A stretch of DNA of 64,000 bases from a virus (taxonomy: Duplodnaviria; Heunggongvirae; Uroviricota; Caudoviricetes): positions 64,001 through 128,000 of the IMG/VR virus record IMGVR_UViG_3300035034_002381; one strand, written 5' to 3'. Positions 1 to 58,358 of the stretch are shown one piece after another (position 1 is the stretch's first letter; every line of letters begins with the position of its first letter). The translations under genes were made by a program, and so were the position numbers. The notes below the pieces were generated by a model. The model was not told the DNA's origin and did no database searches. It worked only from the letters and a program-made list of their open reading frames with translations.

Positions 1-1230
1 GTTTTAGTTTATCATTCTGAAGTAAATGTGACCGATAAAGTTTTTAAATTAGAAGCAGATTATTCAGGTGGGTTCGACATGTTTGAATTAATCACAGGAC
101 CCCTTGATTACTCTGAAGCTCGCAAAACTATCATTAGTGTTTTAGATTGGATAAGTTTGTATGGATATACAAATGATCGTTGTTCTATACATCTAAATGT
201 TTCTTTTGGGCCCAAATTAAAATCAACAATTGAAGTCACAGATCTAAACGTACTTAAGTTTATTCTTAACTTTGACGAAAAAAGGGTATATGAATATTTT
301 CCAGAACGTGAAAATTCTGTGTATGCAAAAAGTATCAAAAAGGATTTAGAACATACGATTTTTTTCCAGAATTATATACCAGTAGATTTTAATTTACAGG
401 ATTTGGTAAAAGTTCCTAATGAAAAATACTATGGAATAAACTTTCTCAAGAAAAATGATAATTATATAGAATTTAGATATTTAGGTGGAAAAAATTATGA
501 AAACAGAACTCCCAAGATATTAGAGATGATGGACTTCTTTATACAGAGTTTATTCTATAATATTAATCATCCTGAATATACCCAAGAAGAAGAAAACAAA
601 CTGAAAAACTTATTTAAGATTTTCCAGAAAAATTTACGAAGTATTAACGCATATCATAATTTTAAAAAGGATTATAAAGATGTAAATATAAGTATTGATC
701 TAAAAAGAGATGATCAAGTAATTGTCACTTATTGGGAACATATTAAATACCGCGTTTTTGATTTAGTCGCAAGATGTGGAGTTAAAAAAGGTCAAATCAA
801 TTATGATACCGAAGTGGGTAAATTGCAAATCTTTGAGTGTGATATGACTTATGCATCAATTACTGATTTAGACGTTATTAAATGTAAGATATCAAATTCG
901 AATGTGACTAGGTGTGAATTGTTTTATAATAAAATAGACAACTCGATAATTCATAATGCGAATGCTGTTAGAGAAAATGAGTTTGAAGATTGTAAAATTA
1001 AAGACACTAATCTTTATGCGACAAATATATGTAAAGATTGTGTAATCGAAAATGAGATACATACTATTAATGGTCAGTTCATTAATGGCATAATTAGAAA
1101 AGGAACTGTGGGTTCGTTAGCTAAATTAGATGGTACTATTCAAGTCGAAGAACAAATCGCAAAAAATACCAAGCCAGATAAAAAAATTATCAAGGACTGG
1201 AAGTGGTTAAAAAGTATACAAAAAACATGA
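1..1230 (+). CDS. Putative amidoligase (COOH-NH2 ligase-like), 5'-truncated by window edge
   Basis: Frame is open from base 1. Motifs ELITGP, CSIHLNVSF, KYYGINF and IEFRYLGG fit phage amidoligases. The C-terminus has short periodic beta-helix-like repeats. Confidence 0.65.
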   Translation, partial: VLVYHSEVNVTDKVFKLEADYSGGFDMFELITGPLDYSEARKTIISVLDWISLYGYTNDRCSIHLNVSFGPKLKSTIEVTDLNVLKFILNFDEKRVYEYFPERENSVYAKSIKKDLEHTIFFQNYIPVDFNLQDLVKVPNEKYYGINFLKKNDNYIEFRYLGGKNYENRTPKILEMMDFFIQSLFYNINHPEYTQEEENKLKNLFKIFQKNLRSINAYHNFKKDYKDVNISIDLKRDDQVIVTYWEHIKYRVFDLVARCGVKKGQINYDTEVGKLQIFECDMTYASITDLDVIKCKISNSNVTRCELFYNKIDNSIIHNANAVRENEFEDCKIKDTNLYATNICKDCVIENEIHTINGQFINGIIRKGTVGSLAKLDGTIQVEEQIAKNTKPDKKIIKDWKWLKSIQKT

Positions 1231-2141
1231 ATAAATTAAAAACTTTCCAAGAATTTATCAATGAATCTGAAGTCAATGAAAAGATGGCTTTGATTGATTA
1301 TAATAATTATGCGCAAATAATTCTTGACGCATTTAATGCAGCACCTAAATTTGATAGGTCCGCGACTAAACATTGGGATTCACTCTTAGATTCTTCAAGG
1401 GACTGGTATAAACGCATGATGTCAGATATTGAAATCGAAATGGTTGATAAAGAAGTTTATAACAGTGTACCTGAAATGATTAAGCGAGTTAAAGCGGAAA
1501 AGAAAATTTATGTGACTCGGGAATATAGAGATCATCCATATTGGAATGACGAAGAATATCGTATGTTTAGAGCTGTACATGATTATATAGTTCATGTTTT
1601 AGGAAAATCCAATTTCGATTTAAGAGGTGAAATGAAAGCAACAAATTTACATATGAAACTTATTCCTGAACTTGCAAAACCCGCGTTATTTATGGAAATA
1701 CCTTGTAATGTAGCAAATATAATTATTACTGGTAAAGCTCCTGACCAAATTAAAATAGCTGCATTAAATCAATTTGATTTCGAAAATATTGGTAACGTAG
1801 AAGGTTATGAGGTTGTCAATAAAAAATTAGTAAAAACAACAAATGAAAATATTGACGAGTCAAAATCTAATATAATAGGACAAACTAAATCCAGTAAAGA
1901 AATTTATTTAAACCCATCATTAAGTGATGTGGATGATTATACCAAGGAAGACCATAAAGAAGCAGCTGCTTTACATCATACATTATATACTGAAGCACCC
2001 AAAAATATGAGAAATCATAAAAAATATCAGAATCATAAAAGACAAGCCAAGTTCCACTCTGATTGGTCCAGCGGAAAGAGCGATAAGTCGACAAGTTATG
2101 GAAGTGTAAAAAACTTCACACCTACAAAAAGAACAATATAA
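1227..2141 (+). CDS. Leader-bearing putative internal head protein (MNKLKTFQEFINE), multi-module
   Basis: ATG at 1227 gives the leader. Contains an FRAVHDxxxH...GE motif and an internal TNENIDES linker. Confidence 0.6.
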   Translation: MNKLKTFQEFINESEVNEKMALIDYNNYAQIILDAFNAAPKFDRSATKHWDSLLDSSRDWYKRMMSDIEIEMVDKEVYNSVPEMIKRVKAEKKIYVTREYRDHPYWNDEEYRMFRAVHDYIVHVLGKSNFDLRGEMKATNLHMKLIPELAKPALFMEIPCNVANIIITGKAPDQIKIAALNQFDFENIGNVEGYEVVNKKLVKTTNENIDESKSNIIGQTKSSKEIYLNPSLSDVDDYTKEDHKEAAALHHTLYTEAPKNMRNHKKYQNHKRQAKFHSDWSSGKSDKSTSYGSVKNFTPTKRTI

Positions 2142-5079: not shown

Positions 5080-5087
5080 GATATATA
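5080..5087 (+). promoter_or_regulatory. GATATATA candidate late promoter
   Basis: Intergenic, 12 nt before the gp25-like start; recurs before many virion genes. Confidence 0.55.
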
Positions 5088-15111: not shown

Positions 15112-15948
15112 ATGAAAATTAAGAAGTTTTCTGAGTTTTTATTTGAAAAAGAAAATGTCAAGGAATTGAGATTATGCTTTGTTGGAGATATTATGCAACA
15201 TGATAAAGTCGTGACTGACGATTCATTCGAAAACGTGAGGTCACTTCTAAAATCTGCTGATATCTGTGTGGGAAATTTAGAAACTATAATTACTGGTGAA
15301 AACAATAATGAAATAATTGATGGGCAAATTAAATTTAGTGCTGATGAAAGTCTTATCAAAGTTTTAAAAAATGTTGGCTTCACACATTTATCTCTCATTA
15401 ACAATCATTCACTTGACTATGGAATCGCAGGATTTCAAAAATCACAGACTGCGGTTGCTAAAGAAATAAAAATACTTAGTAAAGAAACAGAAATTTCCAA
15501 GAATGATCATAAGATCAATCTAGTTAACTTTACTACACATGTTAATAATAATATTAATAATGAATTTTCGGATCATCTAATGACACCTGACGGTTATTCT
15601 AGTAAAGCTAAGAGCATTAATATAGGATATATCCATTGGGGAGGGCAATATAACCCTAAACCCGATTCTGAACAAAAATCTCTAGCATCTAATCTAATTA
15701 ATAATGGATATCCTATTGTTATTGGTTCAGGCCCACACGTTAATCATAAAGTTGTTCGAGATGGTGAATCGATTATTGCGTATTCTTTAGGAGATTTTAT
15801 AAGTAAACACAATGATGATAGAGCTAAAGATCAAGGAAAGATTTTGATTATAGATTTTAAAAATGATATCATTGATAATGTTATGGTTTATACGACACAG
15901 ACCGATAAGAATAACGTTATCCAAATTAAAAAAAGAGAAATAATTTAG
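15112..15948 (+). CDS. CapA/PGA_cap-family metallophosphoesterase-like protein with leader (MKIKKFSEFLFE)
   Basis: CapA motifs FVGDIMQH, GNLET, NNHSLDYG, IHWG, GPHV and YSLGDF. Confidence 0.8.
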   Translation: MKIKKFSEFLFEKENVKELRLCFVGDIMQHDKVVTDDSFENVRSLLKSADICVGNLETIITGENNNEIIDGQIKFSADESLIKVLKNVGFTHLSLINNHSLDYGIAGFQKSQTAVAKEIKILSKETEISKNDHKINLVNFTTHVNNNINNEFSDHLMTPDGYSSKAKSINIGYIHWGGQYNPKPDSEQKSLASNLINNGYPIVIGSGPHVNHKVVRDGESIIAYSLGDFISKHNDDRAKDQGKILIIDFKNDIIDNVMVYTTQTDKNNVIQIKKREII

Positions 15949-17253: not shown

Positions 17254-18852
17254 ATACTAAATTTCAAAGAACATTTAAACGAATCTAAAAGCGATTTCGT
17301 GGTTTATCATAATCAGTATTCAACAGCAATTAATGAGGGTGAAAAATATGCGAAAGCTAGAGGTTATGAATTAGATCAACAGGAATATTCAAATGCGTAT
17401 TTAGACGCATTCTTTAAACCTGAAGAAGGTAAGACTAAAAAGGATAGTTTTAAGCTTTTTAAAAATGATAAAGAACAAAGAAAACAACTACATGTTCAAA
17501 TATACAATCGCGGTATGAAAAAGTTTGAACTAAATATGTACATAAACAATAAAAAACTAATGAAAAGAAATCTTAAATTATTTGAAGAATTTATAAATGA
17601 ATCTTTTTGGTCTTTATCTAAATTAGGTGATAAATTCGATCAATTATTATCAAAAGAACTTAAAAAAATTAAAGGCTGCATATTTTATGTGAAAGGAAGA
17701 GATTTATATTGTAATGATGAATTACTTTTTAAAATAAATGGTGATAAAGATTCTGTAGAAAGTATTGTCAAAAAAGTTAGATTAAAGTTGAACGAATCTT
17801 TAATTAATGAAAAAGAATCTTATGAAAGAGGTTGTGCCATGCTATACTTTGAAAGTAATTGCACCAAAGAGGTTCGTGAGATGATTAAAGAAGAGGATTT
17901 ATATGTTGAGGAAGGCGATGTTTCTTTTGGTAAAGAAACAGAACCTCATTGTACTTTACTTTATGGGTTTGATAAAAAGGTAGAAGCAAATGAAGCATTG
18001 AAAATTTGTGAGAATTTTACATTTGAAGCATGTGAAGCACATAACATTTCTTTATTTGAATCTAAAAAATATGATGTTTTGAAATATGATATCAAAGGTA
18101 AAAATATTAAGGAATGTAATGAAGCCCTTTCTGATTTACCCTTTGAATCTGATTTTCCTGATTTTCACCCTCATATGACTGTTGCATATCTTCAACCAGG
18201 TAAAGGAAAGGAATATACTAAAATGATTAAAGAGTCTCATGCAAGATTGCAAGTGAATCCAGAAAAAATTGTTTATTCTCATCCTAATGGTAAGAAAGAA
18301 GAAATCCAAGTTTTAACGGAAGTTAAAGAAAATGAAAAAGATAATCCTTGCTGGGATGGTTATGAAATGATCGGTATGAAAACTAAAAATGGTAAAAAAG
18401 TTCCTAATTGCGTACCTATAGATGAATCAATTACCGAAAGTCGTGGGCCTAATAGTTTTGAACACTATTTTAAAAACGCCAAGAAAAAACTATCTAGATC
18501 CGGTTTCAAGATAAAAGAAGTTAAAGATACTTATATTAAAGATCATACTGCTATTGTTATTATTTATACTGAGTCTGGTCCAGGTGGTGGAGATAATGAA
18601 TGGATACAAATATTTTATAATACTGAGGAAGAAAGAAAGAAGATTTATAAAGAGTTTGATATCGATGAATCTGTAAGCGAAGGGAAAAAGGATGATAAAA
18701 AAGGCTGGTATAAGGATAAGAAAAAATGGAATCAGGCAAGAAAAAAACTAACTAATGTAGCCGATGACAATGAAATCTGGAGCAAAAATGCGGATGCAGA
18801 TATTATTGCCTTTTGGTATGACGAAAAAGACGAAGGTTGGGTACAAAAATAA
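17254..18852 (+). CDS. Leader-bearing polyprotein containing an Acb1/gp57B-like 2H phosphoesterase
   Basis: In-frame ATA at 17254 gives (M)LNFKEHLNES. A second leader MKRNLKLFEEFINES starts at 17560. HCTLLYG and HMTVAY are the two HxT motifs. A CWDGY...VPNCVP module follows. Confidence 0.65.
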   Translation: MLNFKEHLNESKSDFVVYHNQYSTAINEGEKYAKARGYELDQQEYSNAYLDAFFKPEEGKTKKDSFKLFKNDKEQRKQLHVQIYNRGMKKFELNMYINNKKLMKRNLKLFEEFINESFWSLSKLGDKFDQLLSKELKKIKGCIFYVKGRDLYCNDELLFKINGDKDSVESIVKKVRLKLNESLINEKESYERGCAMLYFESNCTKEVREMIKEEDLYVEEGDVSFGKETEPHCTLLYGFDKKVEANEALKICENFTFEACEAHNISLFESKKYDVLKYDIKGKNIKECNEALSDLPFESDFPDFHPHMTVAYLQPGKGKEYTKMIKESHARLQVNPEKIVYSHPNGKKEEIQVLTEVKENEKDNPCWDGYEMIGMKTKNGKKVPNCVPIDESITESRGPNSFEHYFKNAKKKLSRSGFKIKEVKDTYIKDHTAIVIIYTESGPGGGDNEWIQIFYNTEEERKKIYKEFDIDESVSEGKKDDKKGWYKDKKKWNQARKKLTNVADDNEIWSKNADADIIAFWYDEKDEGWVQK

Positions 18853-18859
18853 AAAGAAT

Positions 18860-18892
18860 ATGAAAACATTTAAAGAATTCTTAAACGTTTGA
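18860..18892 (+). pseudogene. Leader-only mini-ORF MKTFKEFLNV*
   Basis: ATGAAAACATTTAAAGAATTCTTAAACGTTTGA; the first 20 nt are identical to the start of ORF 3468. Confidence 0.6.
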
Positions 18893-49531: not shown

Positions 49532-49991
49532 TAATCCTCCACCTAATGAAGATGATCAAGGAGGAGAAGAAGATTCTTTAAGCATTAGACTTGAAAAAGA
49601 ACGTACAGATCGTATGAAAACTATTCAGGAATTATCTAAAAGAATAAAGGATATTAATTTTATTCATGAACTACAAGTTGATGTTTATTCAGAAAGACAA
49701 AATCTTCTTGAGCGATATCATTATCTATTTACATTATTGGCAAAACAAAATGCTAAGATCAGAGCAAAAAAGAAAAAAAGATTTGAGTATTATGCAAATG
49801 AATATCAATATAATGCGACACCTAAACAAAGAGAAGAAATGATTCGAGTAGATTTAGAATCAGAATATGATGTTCGTGATGAATTGGATAATCAAATGAA
49901 ATATATTAGTGGCTCAATGTCAACTATAGATAATATCATTTTTGGTATAAAACATAGAATAGATGTAGAAGAGTATAGAAGAAGGATGTAA
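49491..49991 (+). CDS. Recombination mediator, UvsY-like
   Basis: All-helical, 166 aa, ending IFGIKHRIDVEEYRR; lies just upstream of uvsW. Confidence 0.55.
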   Translation: MEEENIKNHPLFFDNPPPNEDDQGGEEDSLSIRLEKERTDRMKTIQELSKRIKDINFIHELQVDVYSERQNLLERYHYLFTLLAKQNAKIRAKKKKRFEYYANEYQYNATPKQREEMIRVDLESEYDVRDELDNQMKYISGSMSTIDNIIFGIKHRIDVEEYRRRM

Positions 49992-50809
49992 TGTGGGTTT
50001 ATAAAATTACAAATAAAATTAATGGAAAGATTTATGTGGGTCAATCACACAAGAAAAGATCTATGTATTTAGGTAGTGGTAATCTTATAAAAGCCGCAGT
50101 GAATAAATATGGTAAAGAAAATTTTATTAAAGAGTGGATAGATCAAGCTTTGACACAAGAAGAATTAGACAAAAAGGAAATTTATTGGATAAAGAATTTG
50201 AATGCGCAAGATAAAAATATTGGATATAATATTGCTGACGGTGGATGGAATGCCTTTACGATGAATGATGAAACTAAAAAGAAAATTTCAGAAACATTAA
50301 AGGGTAAGTATGTTGGTGAAAATGCCTTTAGAAAAGGAATAAAACTTAGTGAAGAACACAAGCTTGCAATATCAGAAGCTAATAAAGGAAGAAATAAATT
50401 AGTTTCTGAAGAAACAAGAAGAAAGATGTCTTTATCGAGAATCGGTATTAAATATTCCGATAATACAAGGAGAAAGATGTCCGAAAGCCATAAAGGTAAG
50501 AAACTTTCCATTAGACATAAATTGAAAATATCTGAATCTATAAAAGGAAGACAATTTTCAGCTGTGTCTATAGAAAAAATTCGAAAATCTAATATGGATA
50601 AGCAACAAAAACATTCAATACCAGTAATTTTAGAAAACCAAGATACTGGAGAAATACTAAATTTTAATAACTTATCTTCAGCCGCAAGATATTTTGATAC
50701 TTCTAGACATATAGTTAAAAATAACAAAATTTCAGGTTGGGAAATACAATTGGGTTACCCAATTGTTAAAATAACACAGCTACGTAATGAAAGCACGCGT
50801 GACGGATGA
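49991..50809 (+). mobile_element. Free-standing GIY-YIG homing endonuclease with NUMOD3 repeats
   Basis: VYKITNKINGKIYVGQ...GSG...E...GYN catalytic domain; repeated (H/T)xxKxSxxxKG NUMOD3 units. Confidence 0.9.
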
Positions 50810-52339
50810 TGGCCGTTTTATACAAATAGTAGAGTGTTCAGAATTGGAACATTCGCAAATGCAACTGTCTTTTCGTAAGAGAATCGGACACTGGAGGTTT
50901 CACCCTCTGGTGAAAAAAAAAAAATATGGGATGGCTATATCAATTTTTATGATAAACATCGAAGAATTCCATTAGGTCTTTGGAATAGACTTCAGTCTGA
51001 ATGTAAAAAATATAAGTTTAAGTTAAATTTTCAAGGATCCGAGTTTATTGTTAACAAAGATTTTGATGCAGAAAGCTTTGAAGAGTGGGTATGGGATTTT
51101 TTTAAAGACACACGATATGGTAAAGGAGGATCTCGAGAACTTCGAGATTATCAAATTAAAGCTTGTAAAGACACTTTGACTTTTTATAAGTCAAGATCAG
51201 AGCTAGCGACATCTGCTGGTAAAACTATTATCATGTTTACGGTTTTTGCGTATCTTTTTGAACAACAAAATATTGAGCACCAACTTATAATCGTTCCTAA
51301 TGTTTCTTTAGTAATTCAAACACAAGAAGCATTTCTAGAGTATGCCGAAAATACTCGTCTTGAGAATGATTTTAAAATCCAAATGTTTGGTGGTGGTCGC
51401 TCGACTAAAGATAAAAATGCCCAAATTTATATTGGTACTTATCAAACATTGAAAAAATTTGATATTGAGTTTTTTGATAAAATTCAATGTATCTGTGTTG
51501 ATGAAGCTCATCATACACATGCAAAAAGTATCAAGGATATTATTATTAAATCTTACGATTCAAAATATCGATATGGATTATCAGGTACACTTGATCAAGG
51601 TGATACAGTAGAAGCGATGACACTTGATGCTTATTTGGGACCTATTATAAACAAGGTATCAGCAAAATATCTGATCAAAAACAATTTCGCTACAAAAATT
51701 CTTGTGAAGGCTATTTTCTTGGATTATTTCAAAGATGAAGCAAAAGAAAAGCTTTACCAATTAAGAGAACGTAGAGGTAAAGACATTGACGGTACTAAAC
51801 TTTTAGATATTGAAAGAAAACTTGTAATTGAAAATCGCACAAGATTCAAATTTGTATGTGAGACTATTGCTAAAACTAATAAAAATTCTTTAGCATTATT
51901 CCTTGATGTTAAACATGGATATGGTAAAAGAATATATGACTATCTTCGTGAAAACACGGATAAAACAGTCTTTTATATTGACGGCGGTACAGCATCTGAT
52001 GCTCGAGAAGAATATAAAACTGAAATGGAATCGGGATCAAATAAAATCCTGATTGCATCATTTGGTACCTTTGCCACTGGTATTTCTATACATAACTTGC
52101 ATCATATATTTTTCTTAGAATCATATAAGTCAGATAGAATAGTTAGACAATCGATAGGAAGAGGAATGCGATTACTTGAAGGTAAAGATAAAGTTTATCT
52201 ATGGGATTTTATTGATGATTTTTCCTGGGGAAGTGATAATCGCTTTAAAAACAATTATCTAATACGTCATGGAAGAGAAAGACTTAAAACATATAAAGCA
52301 CAAGGATTTCCCTTTAAAAAATATAAAGTAAAATTGTAA
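50787..52339 (+). CDS. uvsW: UvsW-like SF2 helicase, frameshifted at an A12 run (50913-50924)
   Basis: The 62-aa ORF continues in the -1 frame as IWDGYINFY...LRDYQ...ATSAGKT...VDEAH...GLSGT...QSIGRGMR, in frame with ORF 51176. Confidence 0.88.
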
Positions 52340-52349
52340 TATATACATT

Positions 52350-52598
52350 ATGGAATATGTTAAACTATACGAAGATTTTAATCCTTCAGTAAGTAGACAA
52401 AGAAATAATGAACGCAAAAAGAAATTAGTCGAAAGATATAAAAGGCGTGATGAACAAATCAAAAACACCAAAGATAAAGGAGACGAATCTAAAGCTAACT
52501 TGTATACTAAACGAAAGGAAGTTGATAGATTAGAAATCCAGAAAATTGATGTTAAAAACGAAATTATCAATATCAAGGAAAAAAGAAGAAAGAAATGA
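52350..52598 (+). CDS. Basic small protein with partial leader (MEYVKLYEDF)
   Basis: Preceded by the AATATATA promoter variant at 52338. Confidence 0.5.
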   Translation: MEYVKLYEDFNPSVSRQRNNERKKKLVERYKRRDEQIKNTKDKGDESKANLYTKRKEVDRLEIQKIDVKNEIINIKEKRRKK

Positions 52599-52843
52599 AA
52601 AAATTTGAAGAATTTGTAAACGAAAAAATAGTATTTGGTATTTATGACAAATTTAAAAATACATCGGTAGGTGCAAAAGAATTTGCTTCTGCAATCAGCT
52701 CAGATGATGATGCAGTAGAGGCGTCAATAGATTTTTTAGATGCTATGGAAATTTGGTTTAAAAAAACCCAAAAAGGAAATTGGGAAGATGTTCAACAAGA
52801 ACTAGCAGACAATATTCCTAATGATATAGAATCGTATAGATAA
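52595..52843 (+). CDS. Leader-bearing small protein (MKKFEEFVNE)
   Basis: Clear leader. Confidence 0.6.
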   Translation: MKKFEEFVNEKIVFGIYDKFKNTSVGAKEFASAISSDDDAVEASIDFLDAMEIWFKKTQKGNWEDVQQELADNIPNDIESYR

Positions 52844-52857
52844 AAATAAATAAGAAT

Positions 52858-53033
52858 ATGAAAAAATTTGAAGAATTTGTAAACGAAGGATCAACTTTCG
52901 ATAGTATCGCTGATCATTTGAGAAACAAAAAAATATCAGATGCTGTTTATAAAAAGGAACAATGTCATTATTATTAGACGATAATAGCACTCTAGAATTT
53001 ACATTTAATGACAATACTAAAATAAAAAGATAA
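52858..53033 (+). pseudogene. Leader-bearing small gene (MKKFEEFVNE), apparently frameshifted
   Basis: Stops at 52977. A -1 shift in TATAAAAAGG continues as KGTMSLLLDDNSTLEFTFNDNTKIKR* to 53033. Confidence 0.5.
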
Positions 53034-53035
53034 TT

Positions 53036-53266
53036 ATGAAATCATTTACAAAATTTGTAGAAACAACAAGATCACTTAACGAAAAGGAAGATCTAGAAAA
53101 GGAGTATAAAGAAGTCTTTGATGCTCTATTAGATAAATACGAAGTATCTTCACCCGCAGAACTTAGCGACGAAAAGAAAGCTGAATTTTTTGATGAAATT
53201 AAAAAACATTATACTGCAGGTAAAGGCGCAACCGATAAAGGCGAAGATCTTGTAGGAAAGGAGTAA
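53036..53266 (+). CDS. Leader-bearing small protein (MKSFTKFVE..SLNE)
   Basis: YKEVFDALLDKYEVSSPAELSDEKKAEFF module. Confidence 0.6.
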   Translation: MKSFTKFVETTRSLNEKEDLEKEYKEVFDALLDKYEVSSPAELSDEKKAEFFDEIKKHYTAGKGATDKGEDLVGKE

Positions 53267-54540
53267 TGCAATACGTCCACGGATATACACAATTTCTTAA
53301 TGAACAATTGATAATGGAAGGTGGCGCTTTTGGTCACCTTCATCATCCATTTGAAGATCATAGTTTAACATTTAATGATTTATCAGAAATGATAGAATTA
53401 ACTGTAACTGGAGCGTTTAATCAAAACAATTTTGTTCAAGAAAAAACTGATGGTCAAAATCTCATGTTTACATGGAAAAATGGCGAAATACGTGGTGCCC
53501 GAAGCAAGAAACATTTAAGAAATCAAGGTGAAAACTCATTATCCAAACAAGAAATAAGTCAAATGTATTCTGGTCGTGGTGAAATTTTTACAGCATTTAC
53601 AGAAGCTATTAATGATTTAGAATCAGCAATTAAAAGTCTTTCTTCTAAACAAAAAGATAGAATTTTTTCTGAAGGAAGTAAATTCATGAGTGTAGAAATT
53701 ATTACACCTATGACACAAAACACGGTACCATACGGTTTATCAATGTTAGTCTTCCATGGTACTAATGAATATGATATCGAGGGCAATGTTTTAAATCAAT
53801 ATAAAACTGAGGCTAAAATTCTTGCAGGAATGATTAAGCAAATAAACCAAGACGTACAAAATACGTTCTTTATCCGTGGTCCGCAAAATATTAATTTAGA
53901 AGCTTTACCCAATACTGCTAAAAAGAAAAATTACTATCAAGGTAAGCTACGTAAATTAGTAAATAAATACAATTTGTCTATGTCAGATTCTATACCAGAT
54001 TATTTGTATAAAGTATGGCGAGATAAAACTATTGACATTTTATCTAATAAAAATTATACAGAAGAAATAATCGATGGATTAGCTATGCGCTGGGGTAAAA
54101 AACAAAAATCATATTCAATACCTAATATCAAAAAAGATCTTGGTTCAGAATTTTCTGATTGGGTCAAAAACTTTGAAAAGCGTGGCGGAGAGTATGATAA
54201 ACTCTGGAAAGAATATATTGCACCTGTCGAAGGTTTATTTTTAGAACTTGGTGCAGATATTTTAACCAATATTGAAAGTTTCTTAACAGCAGATCAAAGA
54301 AATGCGACTGAAGAAATGCGTCAAGAAATTGAAAGTACAATAGAAAAGATTAGAAATTCTGATGATGTTACAGCTATTGAAAAGTTGGAACATCAATTAC
54401 AAAGAATTGATACAGCAGGTGGACTAAAAAGATTAGTGCCTTCTGAAGGTATTACATTTTTATATAAAGGAAAACTCTATAAATACACAGGACTATTTGC
54501 TGCTATTAATCAAATAGGTTCACTCATAAGATATAACTAA
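53266..54540 (+). CDS. Leader-bearing RNA/DNA-ligase-fold nucleotidyltransferase (KxDG)
   Basis: MQYVHGYTQFLNE leader; GGAFGHLHHPFED; motif I EKTDG; C-terminal EGITF..KYTG. Confidence 0.65.
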   Translation: MQYVHGYTQFLNEQLIMEGGAFGHLHHPFEDHSLTFNDLSEMIELTVTGAFNQNNFVQEKTDGQNLMFTWKNGEIRGARSKKHLRNQGENSLSKQEISQMYSGRGEIFTAFTEAINDLESAIKSLSSKQKDRIFSEGSKFMSVEIITPMTQNTVPYGLSMLVFHGTNEYDIEGNVLNQYKTEAKILAGMIKQINQDVQNTFFIRGPQNINLEALPNTAKKKNYYQGKLRKLVNKYNLSMSDSIPDYLYKVWRDKTIDILSNKNYTEEIIDGLAMRWGKKQKSYSIPNIKKDLGSEFSDWVKNFEKRGGEYDKLWKEYIAPVEGLFLELGADILTNIESFLTADQRNATEEMRQEIESTIEKIRNSDDVTAIEKLEHQLQRIDTAGGLKRLVPSEGITFLYKGKLYKYTGLFAAINQIGSLIRYN

Positions 54541-55394
54541 TGACAACTGTTGAAAATACGAAAGTTTTAAAAGAATTTACGCAACCTATTCTTAACTCAG
54601 ATGTTCCAGAAGTCTTGGGATTTTTGAATAAATATATTTTGCCTGAAATAGGACTATACGGATTAGATGAAGATGCAACAATAATTGGTTCTGCTGGAAA
54701 AAAGTTATTAAATCAAACCAGCGGTGATATAGATATTGCAATCTTACGAGGTTCCGTTGCTAAACATTTTGATAGGGATGATGTATTAATGGCTATACAT
54801 GAAAAACTTTCATCAATGGGATATAGAACAAATATTCAGAAAGGATTTAGTCAAGTTAACTTTGCTCTTCCAGCACCAAATGGGTTTGTTCAAGTTGATT
54901 TAATGATCACTGATAATTTGGATTGGGCAAAATTTGTTTTTCATTCTCCAGATTATACTAAATCTGAATCAAATTATAGGGGTGTCTACCGAGGAATGTT
55001 ATTAAATGCTGTTGCATCTGAAATTGTTAAAAAAACAGTCAAAAAATTAGATGGGGAAATTGAGGAATATGAACAATATGTAATACGTTCTACCTTTGGT
55101 TTATTTAAAGTACGTAAAACTCTTTTAGGAAAAAATGGTAAGCTAATCAAGACACCTAAACTTTTAGATAAATATGAGCAACGCATCTCCAATAATCCTA
55201 TTGATGCTGTAAAATTACTTTTTGGTAAAGACGTTAGAATCGATGATATAAGTACATTTGAAAAAATGTTGAATGTAATCAAGAGTCAAAAATTCTTATA
55301 TCCTGGAAAGGTTGGAATTATCAAAAATAAATTTATGTGGTATCTTGGAAAAACCAATTTAAATATACCATCAGAAATAACTAATATACCATGA
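54540..55394 (+). CDS. Pol-beta-superfamily nucleotidyltransferase
   Basis: IGSAGKK...SGDIDIA and third acidic residue in VQVDLM. Confidence 0.75.
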   Translation: MTTVENTKVLKEFTQPILNSDVPEVLGFLNKYILPEIGLYGLDEDATIIGSAGKKLLNQTSGDIDIAILRGSVAKHFDRDDVLMAIHEKLSSMGYRTNIQKGFSQVNFALPAPNGFVQVDLMITDNLDWAKFVFHSPDYTKSESNYRGVYRGMLLNAVASEIVKKTVKKLDGEIEEYEQYVIRSTFGLFKVRKTLLGKNGKLIKTPKLLDKYEQRISNNPIDAVKLLFGKDVRIDDISTFEKMLNVIKSQKFLYPGKVGIIKNKFMWYLGKTNLNIPSEITNIP

Positions 55395-55831
55395 AACATA
55401 TAAAATCATATAAAGAAATTCTTAACGAGTCTATTAATTCTCGAGTACGTTCAAAAATTGTTAAGTTACTCAAGACTCAAGGAATTCAGCATAAAGTAGA
55501 TTATGAATATTCTGCTGGACATTTTTTGGTGCCTACTATAGAAGCAGCTGAAGATATTGCTGATGCGATCGGTGATAAATTTCATGTGACTATTTTAGAT
55601 AGAAAGGGTAAAGAAGGAAATACACTTGTAATGATAACTGAAGATGTTAATGAGGCTATCGATTATATGGAAATGGATTATAATTCAAGAAAAGAAATTC
55701 TTAAAAAAACCTTTCCAGATCTTATGGAAGATTCAGTAAAAGATTACGCTTTAAAAACATTTAAAGAATTACCGCCAGAAATGCAAAAAGAAATAGCTGA
55801 ACAATATAACGTAATACTAAAAGATCAATGA
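55391..55831 (+). CDS. Leader-bearing two-module protein (MKHIKSYKEILNES)
   Basis: Leader; internal ITEDVNEA linker. Confidence 0.6.
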   Translation: MKHIKSYKEILNESINSRVRSKIVKLLKTQGIQHKVDYEYSAGHFLVPTIEAAEDIADAIGDKFHVTILDRKGKEGNTLVMITEDVNEAIDYMEMDYNSRKEILKKTFPDLMEDSVKDYALKTFKELPPEMQKEIAEQYNVILKDQ

Positions 55832-56571
55832 AAAATTTTGTAAGTTTCTCAAACTTTGTTAATGAATCTCAAAAAGATACACAGGGAAATACACCTGTCA
55901 ATATTTTGATTGGTAGATTTGATCCCTTCCATATCGGGCATTATTCTGCTGCGAAAGAATTAGTTGATAAAAATGGCTATCCTGTAGTAATTGTTTCTGT
56001 TAGAGGAAAGGGAGATTTTGGAAAGGGTACAACAGTAAGTAAAGAACTTTTTGATAAAATGGTTTCAAAGCTTGTAAAGACTGTGCCATTTATTAACGGA
56101 CACATAGAAATAACTAATGTTTCTTTTGATAAACAATTGTTTGTGAATCTTAGACCTAAGTATGAACCTGTACTTTTAGGAGCAGGCGCAGACAGAATCA
56201 AAGGATATACTGCGCAAATGAATTCTTTCAGAGACAAAAAGGGCAATGTAATTAATATGCGCCAAGATTTTGATGTAGTTCAAACTTCACGAAAAGCAAG
56301 TGGCACTGAGGTCCGTGAAATAATTTCTAAAAAAGATAAAAAGAATTTCTTAAGATTAATGCCTAAAGAACTTCATAATTTTTGGGATGAACTGGTCAAA
56401 GAACTTAATGAGACAAAAAGACCATTATCTTACCATATTGATATATATGATAAGGCCATACAAAAATTGGTAGAAAGTAAGAAAAAAGATAACAAAACTA
56501 TTTCAACAATAGAAAGATTAATAGTGGAGAAGACTAAACTAATCCAAAATTATTCTGATCTTATTAAGTAA
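55828..56571 (+). CDS. Leader-bearing HIGH-motif cytidylyl/adenylyltransferase-like protein
   Basis: MKNFVSFSNFVNES leader; IGRFDPFHIGH; GAGADR; ASGTEVR. Confidence 0.8.
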   Translation: MKNFVSFSNFVNESQKDTQGNTPVNILIGRFDPFHIGHYSAAKELVDKNGYPVVIVSVRGKGDFGKGTTVSKELFDKMVSKLVKTVPFINGHIEITNVSFDKQLFVNLRPKYEPVLLGAGADRIKGYTAQMNSFRDKKGNVINMRQDFDVVQTSRKASGTEVREIISKKDKKNFLRLMPKELHNFWDELVKELNETKRPLSYHIDIYDKAIQKLVESKKKDNKTISTIERLIVEKTKLIQNYSDLIK

Positions 56572-56576
56572 AAGAC

Positions 56577-58358
56577 ATGCCAGGAATAAAGAAATTAGAC
56601 AGAATTTATCAATCAGACGGATTGATCGAAGCTAAAAAACATTTAGAAGGTAACATAACGATTACTGAAAAATTGGATGCTCATAGATTTTCGTTTCAAG
56701 TAAATGAAGATAAAAAAGTTTCGTATTATAAGAAAAACGATAATCGTGAGATTTCTAAAATTGATCGGATTATTACTGATTTATATGAGCGAGCAATAGT
56801 TCATATCGAATCTTTACCTAAGTCTATTCTTAAAAACATTCCTAAAAATACGAGGTTTGGATTTTCATATTTTCCGAATCAGAAACCTCTTAGAATAAAA
56901 TATTCAAAAATTCCAGAAAGCAGATTAGTACTAACTGATATATCATCAAGATCTGATGTAGGTAAAGTCCGCAAGGTTTATGAAGATCAAAAATATTTAG
57001 ATAATTGGGCAGATATTCTTAAAGTTTCTAAGCCCCCAATAATTTTTCAGGGTGTACTTGAAGAAAATCAAAGAGATCATATTCTTAATCTTGTGAAGGG
57101 AACAGATTCTACTGTTGCGTTTTTCTCACAACATATCGAGGGAATATTTGAAAAAACATTTTCTGGCAATAACATTATTGAGGCGCTAGTTTTCAAAAAT
57201 AAAAATGGCTTAACTCAATTAAGGGATCCATCATATAAAATTTTTAATGAAGCTGCTCGACCTACAGTTAGTCGGGATTTTTATGACTTGACAATTATAC
57301 AAATTCAAGAATTCATGGAGAATTATGAATTCGGTATTTTTCGAGATAATCTTTCAGAAAATGAACGATATATCAATTTAATATCTGATGCATATAACAA
57401 ATTTATTGATGCCGATTTAATCGATGAAAATTTTAATCCTGAGTTTCTTAAACCTAATATTATTGGCACGCATGGTTGTTTAGGACGCAAATTTATCAGA
57501 AATAACGAAACTCTTCAAAAAATAAATAGATCAGCTTTAAACGAGGAACTATTTAAAGTATTTTTGATTAGTCTACATCGTAAAAAATCTCCTCATGGAT
57601 TATTGAATCAAAGCATAATCAACAGTTTTAATCAGACTATCGAAAAAATTCAAGAAAGTATAAGTGCAAATGATGGCGAGGGTCTTCTTTCGTATCATGA
57701 AACTATTAAAATTCTCGAGGGTAATAACGTTAAATTAGACGATCAACAACCTAATTATATCAAGGTAGTTTCTTCATTACAAAAATCATTCAATAAAGAA
57801 ATTAAACATAAAGAAATTGAGCCTTTACCTAAAGCTATATGTATTATTGGCAAATTCGATTTTATTACAAAAAAACATATAGATTTAATCGAAGGATTTT
57901 CGGCAGAAAATGTAATCATTGTCAATCTTTCTAAAAAGAAGTTGAAATTATCTAAAGAACTTTTTCAACTTGAGGATCGTGAGGTTGATAAAATACTTAA
58001 ATCTTTACAAGATGAAAACGATAACATTAAAGAAATTGTTAATTGTTCATATTATTCTCTTGAAAAGATTTTTTACAAAGTTAGAAAAGTGGGATATGAA
58101 CCGATTAATTTTTATGTAAATGAAAAATCAATTGCTAATTATTCGATTCAATATAATACGATCAAACATATTTTAGGTGATCGTTTAAAAATCTCAAAGG
58201 ATTTTGATATCTCTGGTTTTTCTATTGATGATAAGCGCACTATTTTCAGATCAATTGAAGATGATGATTATGTAAAATTTAAAGAAGTCTCACCTAAAAT
58301 TCTTAAGAACTTCTGGGAGATATATAAATCCAGATATAACATTTGGAAAAAAGAATAA
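56577..58358 (+). CDS. Fusion of degenerate ligase-fold domain and degenerate HIGH-transferase domain
   Basis: ITEKLDAHRF (KxDA instead of KxDG), IEALVF and IGKFDFITKKH (HIGH lost). Confidence 0.6.
   Translation: MPGIKKLDRIYQSDGLIEAKKHLEGNITITEKLDAHRFSFQVNEDKKVSYYKKNDNREISKIDRIITDLYERAIVHIESLPKSILKNIPKNTRFGFSYFPNQKPLRIKYSKIPESRLVLTDISSRSDVGKVRKVYEDQKYLDNWADILKVSKPPIIFQGVLEENQRDHILNLVKGTDSTVAFFSQHIEGIFEKTFSGNNIIEALVFKNKNGLTQLRDPSYKIFNEAARPTVSRDFYDLTIIQIQEFMENYEFGIFRDNLSENERYINLISDAYNKFIDADLIDENFNPEFLKPNIIGTHGCLGRKFIRNNETLQKINRSALNEELFKVFLISLHRKKSPHGLLNQSIINSFNQTIEKIQESISANDGEGLLSYHETIKILEGNNVKLDDQQPNYIKVVSSLQKSFNKEIKHKEIEPLPKAICIIGKFDFITKKHIDLIEGFSAENVIIVNLSKKKLKLSKELFQLEDREVDKILKSLQDENDNIKEIVNCSYYSLEKIFYKVRKVGYEPINFYVNEKSIANYSIQYNTIKHILGDRLKISKDFDISGFSIDDKRTIFRSIEDDDYVKFKEVSPKILKNFWEIYKSRYNIWKKE
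58319..58326 (+). promoter_or_regulatory. GATATATA candidate late promoter
   Basis: Inside the end of the upstream ORF, 38 nt before ATG 58365. Confidence 0.4.

Follow-up and report, generated by a model that had tools for sequence, protein, structure and literature searches.

The closest described counterpart of the locus reported here is the capsid targeting sequence (CTS) of bacteriophage T4, MKTYQEFIAE (PMC8442874). In T4, the first ten residues of the internal protein (IP) IPIII suffice for loading a protein into the prohead, with residues 4 and 7 directing targeting and residues 8 and 10 directing cleavage by the prohead protease (PMC9026906). T-even phages carry their IP genes at two small loci flanked by promoter and stem-loop elements (PMC2839356). 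In phage RB15, the small genes ip5-ip9-ip7-ip8 (Repoila et al. 1994; GenBank Z35082) lie in tandem and have only the leader in common, their cargo being variable; IP gene shuffling in T-even phages was hypothesised in the same work (cited through PMC4122927 and PMC2839356). The PeSL cassettes of T4-type phages likewise place short conserved sequences between variable genes, and modular shuffling was proposed for them (Arbiol et al. 2010, PMC2839356). [quoted passage not shown]

The stretch of DNA analysed here (the window, 64,000 nucleotides) was taken from a virus record of IMG/VR, 173,506 bases long and estimated to be 60% complete, of which it spans bases 64001-128000. Coordinates are window positions unless marked as genome positions. 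The relevant features are:

52595..52624, + strand: leader copy 1, MKKFEEFVNE, a predicted capsid-targeting propeptide with a predicted cut after Glu10; exact repeat
52858..52887, + strand: leader copy 2, the same 30 nt as copy 1; exact repeat
52595..52843, + strand: gene 1, 82 aa, the leader plus a 72-aa acidic orphan cargo (pI 4.3); ORF with a strong in-frame codon signal
52823..52831, + strand: GATATAGAA, a one-mismatch variant of GATATATAA and weak candidate promoter, 35 nt before the gene 2 ATG
52858..52977, + strand: gene 2, 5′ reading frame of 39 codons (leader plus 29 aa) with coding-like codon usage
52953..52974, + strand: interval in which the frame must change by -1, from three-frame translation and read-through
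52962..53033, + strand: gene 2, 3′ part in the -1 frame, a 23-codon ORF with codon usage above 99.2% of spurious stop-free ORFs
53036..53266, + strand: gene 3, 76 aa; its N-terminus, MKSFTKFVETTRSLNE, is a longer leader-like sequence with a predicted cut after LNE16
53266..54540, + strand: gene 4, 424 aa, with leader MQYVHGYTQFLNE; ORF whose relatives keep a leader-like N-terminus
G000:C1:17120-19195, outside the window: prohead protease ORF, 691 aa (locus L224); Peptidase_S77, phrog_207

The 30-mer ATGAAAAAATTTGAAGAATTTGTAAACGAA opens two plus-strand ORFs whose starts, 52595 and 52858, lie 263 nt apart, and the 30/30 match bears out the preliminary description of one leader DNA on two adjacent genes. 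The whole 173,506-base record holds exactly two copies, even with three mismatches allowed; other IMG/VR viral contigs lack the 30-mer, and no other DNA encoding the exact peptide MKKFEEFVNE occurs elsewhere in IMG/VR. Identity runs from the A of the ATG to the last base of the Glu codon (GAA) and, as had been described, is lost right after it, the next codons being AAA ATA in one gene and GGA TCA in the other. The 40 nt upstream of the two ATGs do not align. Local alignment of the cargo proteins of genes 1 and 2 remained at shuffle level (p=0.49, or p=0.84 with gene 2 read through), as did alignment of the cargo DNA (p=0.30). The two genes are thus unrelated apart from the leader, as had been claimed, and the homology through the cargo by which a plain gene duplication was to be recognised is absent.

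Like the T4 CTS, the leader is ten residues long, which falls within the span of about 10-19 residues known for T4-type propeptides. It carries aromatic residues at both targeting positions (F4 and F7 here, Y4 and F7 in T4), and its processing positions hold the aliphatic residue (V8, P3) and the Glu (E10, P1) that the T4 CTS requires. The same arrangement of aromatic residues 4 and 7, aliphatic residue 8 and Glu10 characterises the leaders of T4 IPII and IPIII (Mullaney & Black 1996; reviewed in PMC9026906 and PMC3012670). Five positions differ: K3, F4, E5, V8 and N9 here, as against T, Y, Q, I and A in T4. DNA identity stops exactly at the Glu after which the T4-like cut is predicted, and the earlier view of the repeat as a leader with a cleavage site at its end agrees well with the CTS. 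Moreover, the mature parts of genes 1 and 2 are unrelated and only the leader is common to them, which is how members of a CTS system are recognised.

The 30-nt block probably encodes a T4-type capsid targeting sequence, with the two leaders identical through recent copying. If the leader is a CTS, genes 1 and 2 would accordingly be internal-protein-like cargo genes: the ten-residue N-terminal propeptide would carry each protein into the assembling prohead and would then be removed by a gp21-type prohead protease cutting after V-N-E, and the mature products would lie in the head and be injected along with the DNA. We infer packaging, cleavage and injection of the leader-bearing proteins from their sequences. 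With a pI of 4.3 for the mature part of gene 1 and 8.1 for the gene 2 fragment, the pair departs from the classical small basic T4 IPs; the acidic cargo of gene 1, known here from sequence, counts against likeness to the T4 proteins, which are basic, abundant and experimentally proven. Basic charge is not required of CTS cargo in general.

As in T4, a gp21-type protease is encoded in the same genome. The Peptidase_S77 match in the record scores 48 bits, above the cut-off, and the phrog_207 head maturation protease profile matches with an E value of 3e-40; the motifs GELDHP and ISSRA align with GELNHP and VSSRG of T4 gp21, so that the His- and Ser-containing motifs are retained. Within the 691-aa ORF, the protease occupies ~170 residues at the N-terminus, followed by a coiled-coil-like tail of 521 aa. 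This tail holds 11 [LIV]NE sites, 14 times the proteome density (p 1e-9), as would be expected of a scaffold degraded by the protease at that motif, and the ORF, judged by its sequence, looks like a protease-scaffold fusion. Relatives G001-G003 encode 639-640-aa versions of the ORF, and contigs of T4 proper encode proteases of ~220 aa. In pairwise alignment, the Gp23-family capsid protein, which is closest to that of Lak megaphages (40% identity), places SLNE|AF near the FLTE|AE maturation site of T4 gp23, and cleavage there is predicted.

Leaders of this type are widespread in the genome. Across 187 ORFs, enrichment of the leader motif within the first 9 residues is 20-fold (p 2e-12), and for ~23 genes a propeptide is predicted that is 10-22 residues long and has [LIV]xE at its end. 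Candidate packaged proteins are thereby numerous, as they are in phiKZ and SPN3US; the propeptides of those phages are often >100 residues long and end in A/S-x-E, whereas the T4 type found here is short and ends in [LIV]-x-E. Six leader-bearing genes form a tandem run, with starts at 52595, 52858, 53036, 53266, 55391 and 55828, and overall such genes lie at no fewer than eight places in the genome.

Beyond this genome, at least 120 IMG/VR contigs match a degenerate DNA pattern for MK.F.EF.NE, with almost all matches placed at the start of an ORF and in front of very diverse cargo (median 127 aa). Peptidase_S77 scored above the family cut-off in 10 of 16 leader-bearing contigs >100 kb and in all six that are at least 90% complete, a co-occurrence that lacks a base-rate control. 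One contig matched by the pattern encodes a protein with the leader MKTFKEFINE that is 100% identical to RB15 Ip7, and the same Ip7 protein is annotated as an internal head protein in Tequatrovirus phage vB_EcoM_G8. A named T-even leader thus fits the pattern of the leaders seen here. We set aside the notion that phages unlike T4 carry the leader as well: contigs with fused proteins of 1200-1400 aa appear to be T4-type too, since their representative L064 encodes Peptidase_S77.

The main alternative is that the leader is some other N-terminal element, for instance a signal for degradation or localisation, an export leader of the bacteriocin type, or a feature of the mRNA or of translation initiation. 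The scatter of leader genes over at least eight loci, as against two in T-even phages, counts against a capsid-loading tag, and there are many more leader genes here than in T-even phages, enzymes included. Several of these enzymes, namely an Acb1-like phosphoesterase, a PGA_cap protein and a cytidylyltransferase-like protein, could well act in the cytoplasm and need not be virion proteins, which likewise speaks against a tag; besides, the predicted assignment to the virion was made from sequence, and an A/U-rich start region could favour translation. However, the leader is conserved at the peptide level while its codons vary, which argues against an RNA element. It ends in V-N-E and has no Gly-Gly cleavage motif, and no C39-peptidase ABC exporter of the double-glycine leader systems was matched by Pfam in the ten genes scanned (49991-56571), whose only Pfam families are cytidylyltransferase, helicase and homing endonuclease. 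The leader's end motif is, in turn, enriched in the scaffold-like tail of the protease and present at the predicted maturation site of the capsid protein, and the same leader type stands on a named T-even internal protein. On balance, we regard a role other than capsid loading as rather unlikely.

Some leader-bearing products were assigned to families. A 278-aa protein (window 15112-15948) belongs to the PGA_cap family (E 7e-39), and a 430-aa protein (window 17560-18852) has an Acb1 / 2H-phosphoesterase domain at 27.4 bits against a cut-off of 27. A weak match (E 0.0014) links a 304-aa protein (window 1227-2141) to the PHROG of RNA polymerase ADP-ribosylase (Alt-like), and a further leader-bearing protein is cytidylyltransferase-like. 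Directly 3′ of the Acb1-like gene lies a leader-only stump of 10 codons (window 18860-18892; ATG AAA ACA TTT AAA GAA TTC TTA AAC GTT TGA, encoding MKTFKEFLNV followed by a stop); it is followed by a 121-aa ORF in another frame that opens with the degenerate leader VKYIISYKDLNE. A leader ORF of 23 codons was also found at genome 7422.

Returning to the repeat, MKKFEEFVNE encoded twice independently with this genome's codon usage would give the same 30 nt in 1.7-3.5% of cases. As a comparison set we used 121 leaders of pattern MK.F.EF.NE from other IMG/VR contigs, among which 30/30 identity was seen in 2 of 7149 leader pairs with unrelated cargo and in 2 of 137 pairs with the same peptide. Codon bias alone, raised beforehand as a way in which such identity might be expected, accordingly falls short. 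Likewise, the genome-wide all-against-all comparison that had been proposed singled out 52595/52858 as the sole identical pair among 21 leader-type gene starts, the next best pair matching at 24/27 positions. Identity beyond the codon-bias expectation suggests that the leader DNA was recently copied.

Comparable cases exist. The neighbouring T4 genes ipII and ipIII have 47 nt of identical sequence in common, made up of 15 nt of ribosome-binding region, the 30-nt CTS and 2 nt more, and their mature parts are unrelated (p 0.99). Both systems thus combine adjacent genes and unrelated cargo with identical leader DNA; the identity in T4 includes the ribosome-binding region and 2 nt past the Glu codon, whereas here it spans exactly ATG to GAA. 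In L258, a related metagenomic phage, two leaders share 42 identical nt from the ATG (MKHIQTFEQFVFEN) and then diverge completely, with cargo similarity at p 0.33; this pair consists of an 88-aa orphan and an adjacent 200-aa cytidylyltransferase-like gene (L258:4476-5364, contig Ga0214192_1000829). A second adjacent pair in the present genome (genome 23493/23712) is identical at 30/32 nt from the ATG. By contrast, adjacent leaders in the relative L006 and in RB15 differ at synonymous sites; those of RB15 are identical at 19-25/30 nt and have the common upstream sequence aggaaaataaa, as against 30/30 without a conserved flank here. Selection keeps the peptide while the DNA normally drifts, so that identical DNA marks a recent event. 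Such events appear to be occasional, given that 87 neighbouring leader pairs at the fetched loci are barely more alike (mean identity 18.3/27) than unlinked pairs (17.0/27).

The most economical account would be that one leader was recently copied onto its neighbour, giving identity at every synonymous site. The two leaders would already have been alike, and the route would be unequal recombination between them or short-patch gene conversion, possibly in the course of the replication by recombination that T4-type phages typically use. If only the leader was copied, the limits of the identity at the ATG and at the Glu codon would be explained, and a dedicated cassette would be unnecessary. A length of 30 nt is short for ordinary homologous recombination, which counts against such copying. 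Duplication of a leader that thereby captured new cargo fits equally well. The proposal that the leader is copied as a DNA cassette with its junction at the cleavage site therefore stands in part: recent copying and a junction at Glu are found for the 52595/52858 pair, but gene conversion gives the same boundaries, and the junction lies elsewhere in other pairs, with identity ending mid-leader at genome 23493/23712 and starting 15 nt upstream in T4 ipII/ipIII. That the leader may also be a recombination platform for exchanging cargo was proposed too, and stays a hypothesis; the strain comparison suggested for cargo swaps yielded no strain-level relatives, the best protein identity for the 424-aa gene being 47-48% in IMG/VR and in metagenome contigs.

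A bolder extension, which we regard as possible though unlikely, is that leader-coding DNA is a unit of gene turnover and that leader-targeted recombination recurs, rather than amounting to occasional conversion. Short leader homology would then repeatedly capture or convert neighbouring sequence, making packaged proteins from orphan sequence and leaving behind broken genes and leader-only stumps, of which gene 2, the stump at window 18860 and the ORF at genome 7422 would be examples. Its footprint would be the leader-bounded identity seen independently in T4, in L258 and in the present phage.

Compared with recent copying of the leader, plain tandem duplication of a whole gene, with bodies that diverged and a leader kept by purifying selection, is improbable. 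In its favour, the two genes are neighbours with a common orientation and were originally of similar size, and leader genes in this genome and its relatives do occur in tandem runs. Yet selection on the peptide leaves synonymous sites unprotected, and all nine degenerate codons are identical; the cargo has no residual similarity in protein or DNA, and older adjacent pairs do show synonymous drift. An old duplication may be the origin of the pair, but a later conversion would still be needed for its identity.

The second gene had been described as frameshifted, and its codon usage supports this, since both overlapping ORFs are coding-like in their own frames: the 39-codon ORF scores 12.6 bits and the 23-codon ORF 8.3 bits, as against a mean of -6.4 bits for 793 spurious stop-free off-frame stretches, of which 0% reach 12.6 and 0.8% reach 8.3. 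The interval of the frame change overlaps the A5 run in TAT AAA AAG G (52948-57), and joining the frames by -1 at this point gives a 58-aa product. A programmed -1 frameshift, though possible, was set aside as unsupported: T AAA AAG is only near-canonical, and there is no RNA structure downstream (z -0.8). Gene 2 may equally be decaying or carry a sequencing or assembly error. About 2 kb upstream, a ResIII/DEAD helicase gene (window 50787-52339) is frameshifted within a 12-A run (50913-50924), its N-terminal 40-odd residues lying in one frame and the remainder in another, by homopolymer assembly error or slippage; this makes an assembly error in gene 2 possible. A free-standing GIY-YIG / NUMOD homing endonuclease gene (window 49991-50809) lies directly upstream of the helicase gene.

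One might extend the assembly argument to the repeat itself, with the second copy and/or the gene 2 frameshift being artefacts: the record is a metagenome-derived contig, the helicase A12 frameshift makes homopolymer errors plausible in this assembly, and the frame of gene 2 changes at an A5 run. We consider this highly improbable, because both copies are flanked on each side by unique, coding-like sequence where a collapsed or chimeric repeat would put one copy, not two, at a junction, and because an A5 run is short for a homopolymer error, which could in any case account for the frameshift and not for the repeat. Coincidence, by which independent leaders of one family would have arrived at the same peptide and codons under peptide constraint in an AT-rich genome, is hardly tenable: most codons are indeed the preferred ones (AAA 80%, TTT 78%, GAA 85%) and chance alone gave 30/30 identity in two unrelated IMG/VR leader pairs, but the per-pair probability is ~3e-4 given the strict pattern and 2-3.5% even with the peptide granted, Asn is encoded by its minor codon AAC (24%) and Val by GTA (36%), of 210 pairs it is the adjacent one that is identical, and the same is seen for adjacent genes in T4 and L258.

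As for transcription, GATATATAA occurs 12 times on the plus strand and 0 times on the minus strand genome-wide (in the window at 5080, 15962, 39527, 45196, 47006 and 58319), usually 12-46 nt upstream of a start codon; among the genes so preceded are several with leaders, one for a baseplate wedge protein and the one for the protease-scaffold protein. The motif is a late-promoter candidate, different from TATAAATA of T4. The T4 late promoter sequence itself showed no strand bias in this genome (16 vs 15) and was not used as evidence. Only the one-mismatch variant precedes gene 2, and none precedes gene 1; the GATATAGAA site is weak evidence, since the looser motif also matches inside genes. A sigma-70 and terminator scan of the locus gave background levels, and two terminator-like hairpins fall inside gene 1. 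The conserved promoter and stem-loop of PeSLs do not flank genes 1 and 2, whose upstream sequences do not align; PeSLs are non-coding units, whereas the unit repeated here, the leader, is coding.

Gene 1, whose start overlaps the stop of the upstream ORF (ATGA), is an orphan: a search of 5.8 billion proteins returned only the protein itself, and there was no Pfam or PHROG match, no IMG/VR relative and no useful ESM Atlas lead. T4 Ip1-3 inhibit GmrSD-type restriction (PMC12373910), and by analogy an early anti-defence role of gene 1 would be a reasonable guess. At the nucleotide level, blastn of the locus against GenBank phages gave short weak matches only (E at least 0.01 among the ten listed), and megablast of 50000-58000 against the same phages gave none.

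The cargo of gene 3 holds a small SPAELSDEKKKEFF domain (phrog_28651), and in L162 a homologue of this cargo stands behind the canonical leader MKSFQEFVNE. The cargo consists of a module of ~40 residues, Y..FF..L.KFGV.SPAELSDEKKKEFF, which elsewhere (L085-L095, L162) occurs alone without a leader, behind a leader, or inside proteins of 390-600 aa, one of which opens with a P-loop kinase-like GGPGSGKS segment. The module behaves as a small mobile domain.

Gene 4 has no Pfam, PHROG or PDB sequence match. On our reading, a KxDG motif in its body may correspond to those of ligases; it also has a conserved GGA[FY]GHLxHPF box. In the loci compared (L015, L018, L040, L064 and L074), its domain either forms the C-terminus of 1200-1400-aa proteins of other T4-type contigs, whose N-terminal GGPGSGKS segment is P-loop kinase-like, or follows, as a fusion, a cytidylyltransferase-like HIGH-motif domain (716 aa). 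These contexts suggest an RNA-repair-like module.

Taken as a whole, the locus exemplifies a system already known, that of the T4 CTS and its internal proteins, in a lineage far from T4; its mechanism is not new. The principle was established in T4, where ipII and ipIII bear the same DNA signature, so that the value of the finding lies in an annotation rule and in a further example from a distant lineage. If the reading is correct, packaged and probably injected proteins would be predictable from sequence alone in uncultured T4-related phages, and genes 1-4 together with ~20 others would be candidates for counter-defence in the first minutes of infection, comparable to the action of T4 Ip1-3 on GmrSD (PMC12373910). 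The identical DNA on neighbouring genes would then indicate that the set of leader genes is still being remodelled.
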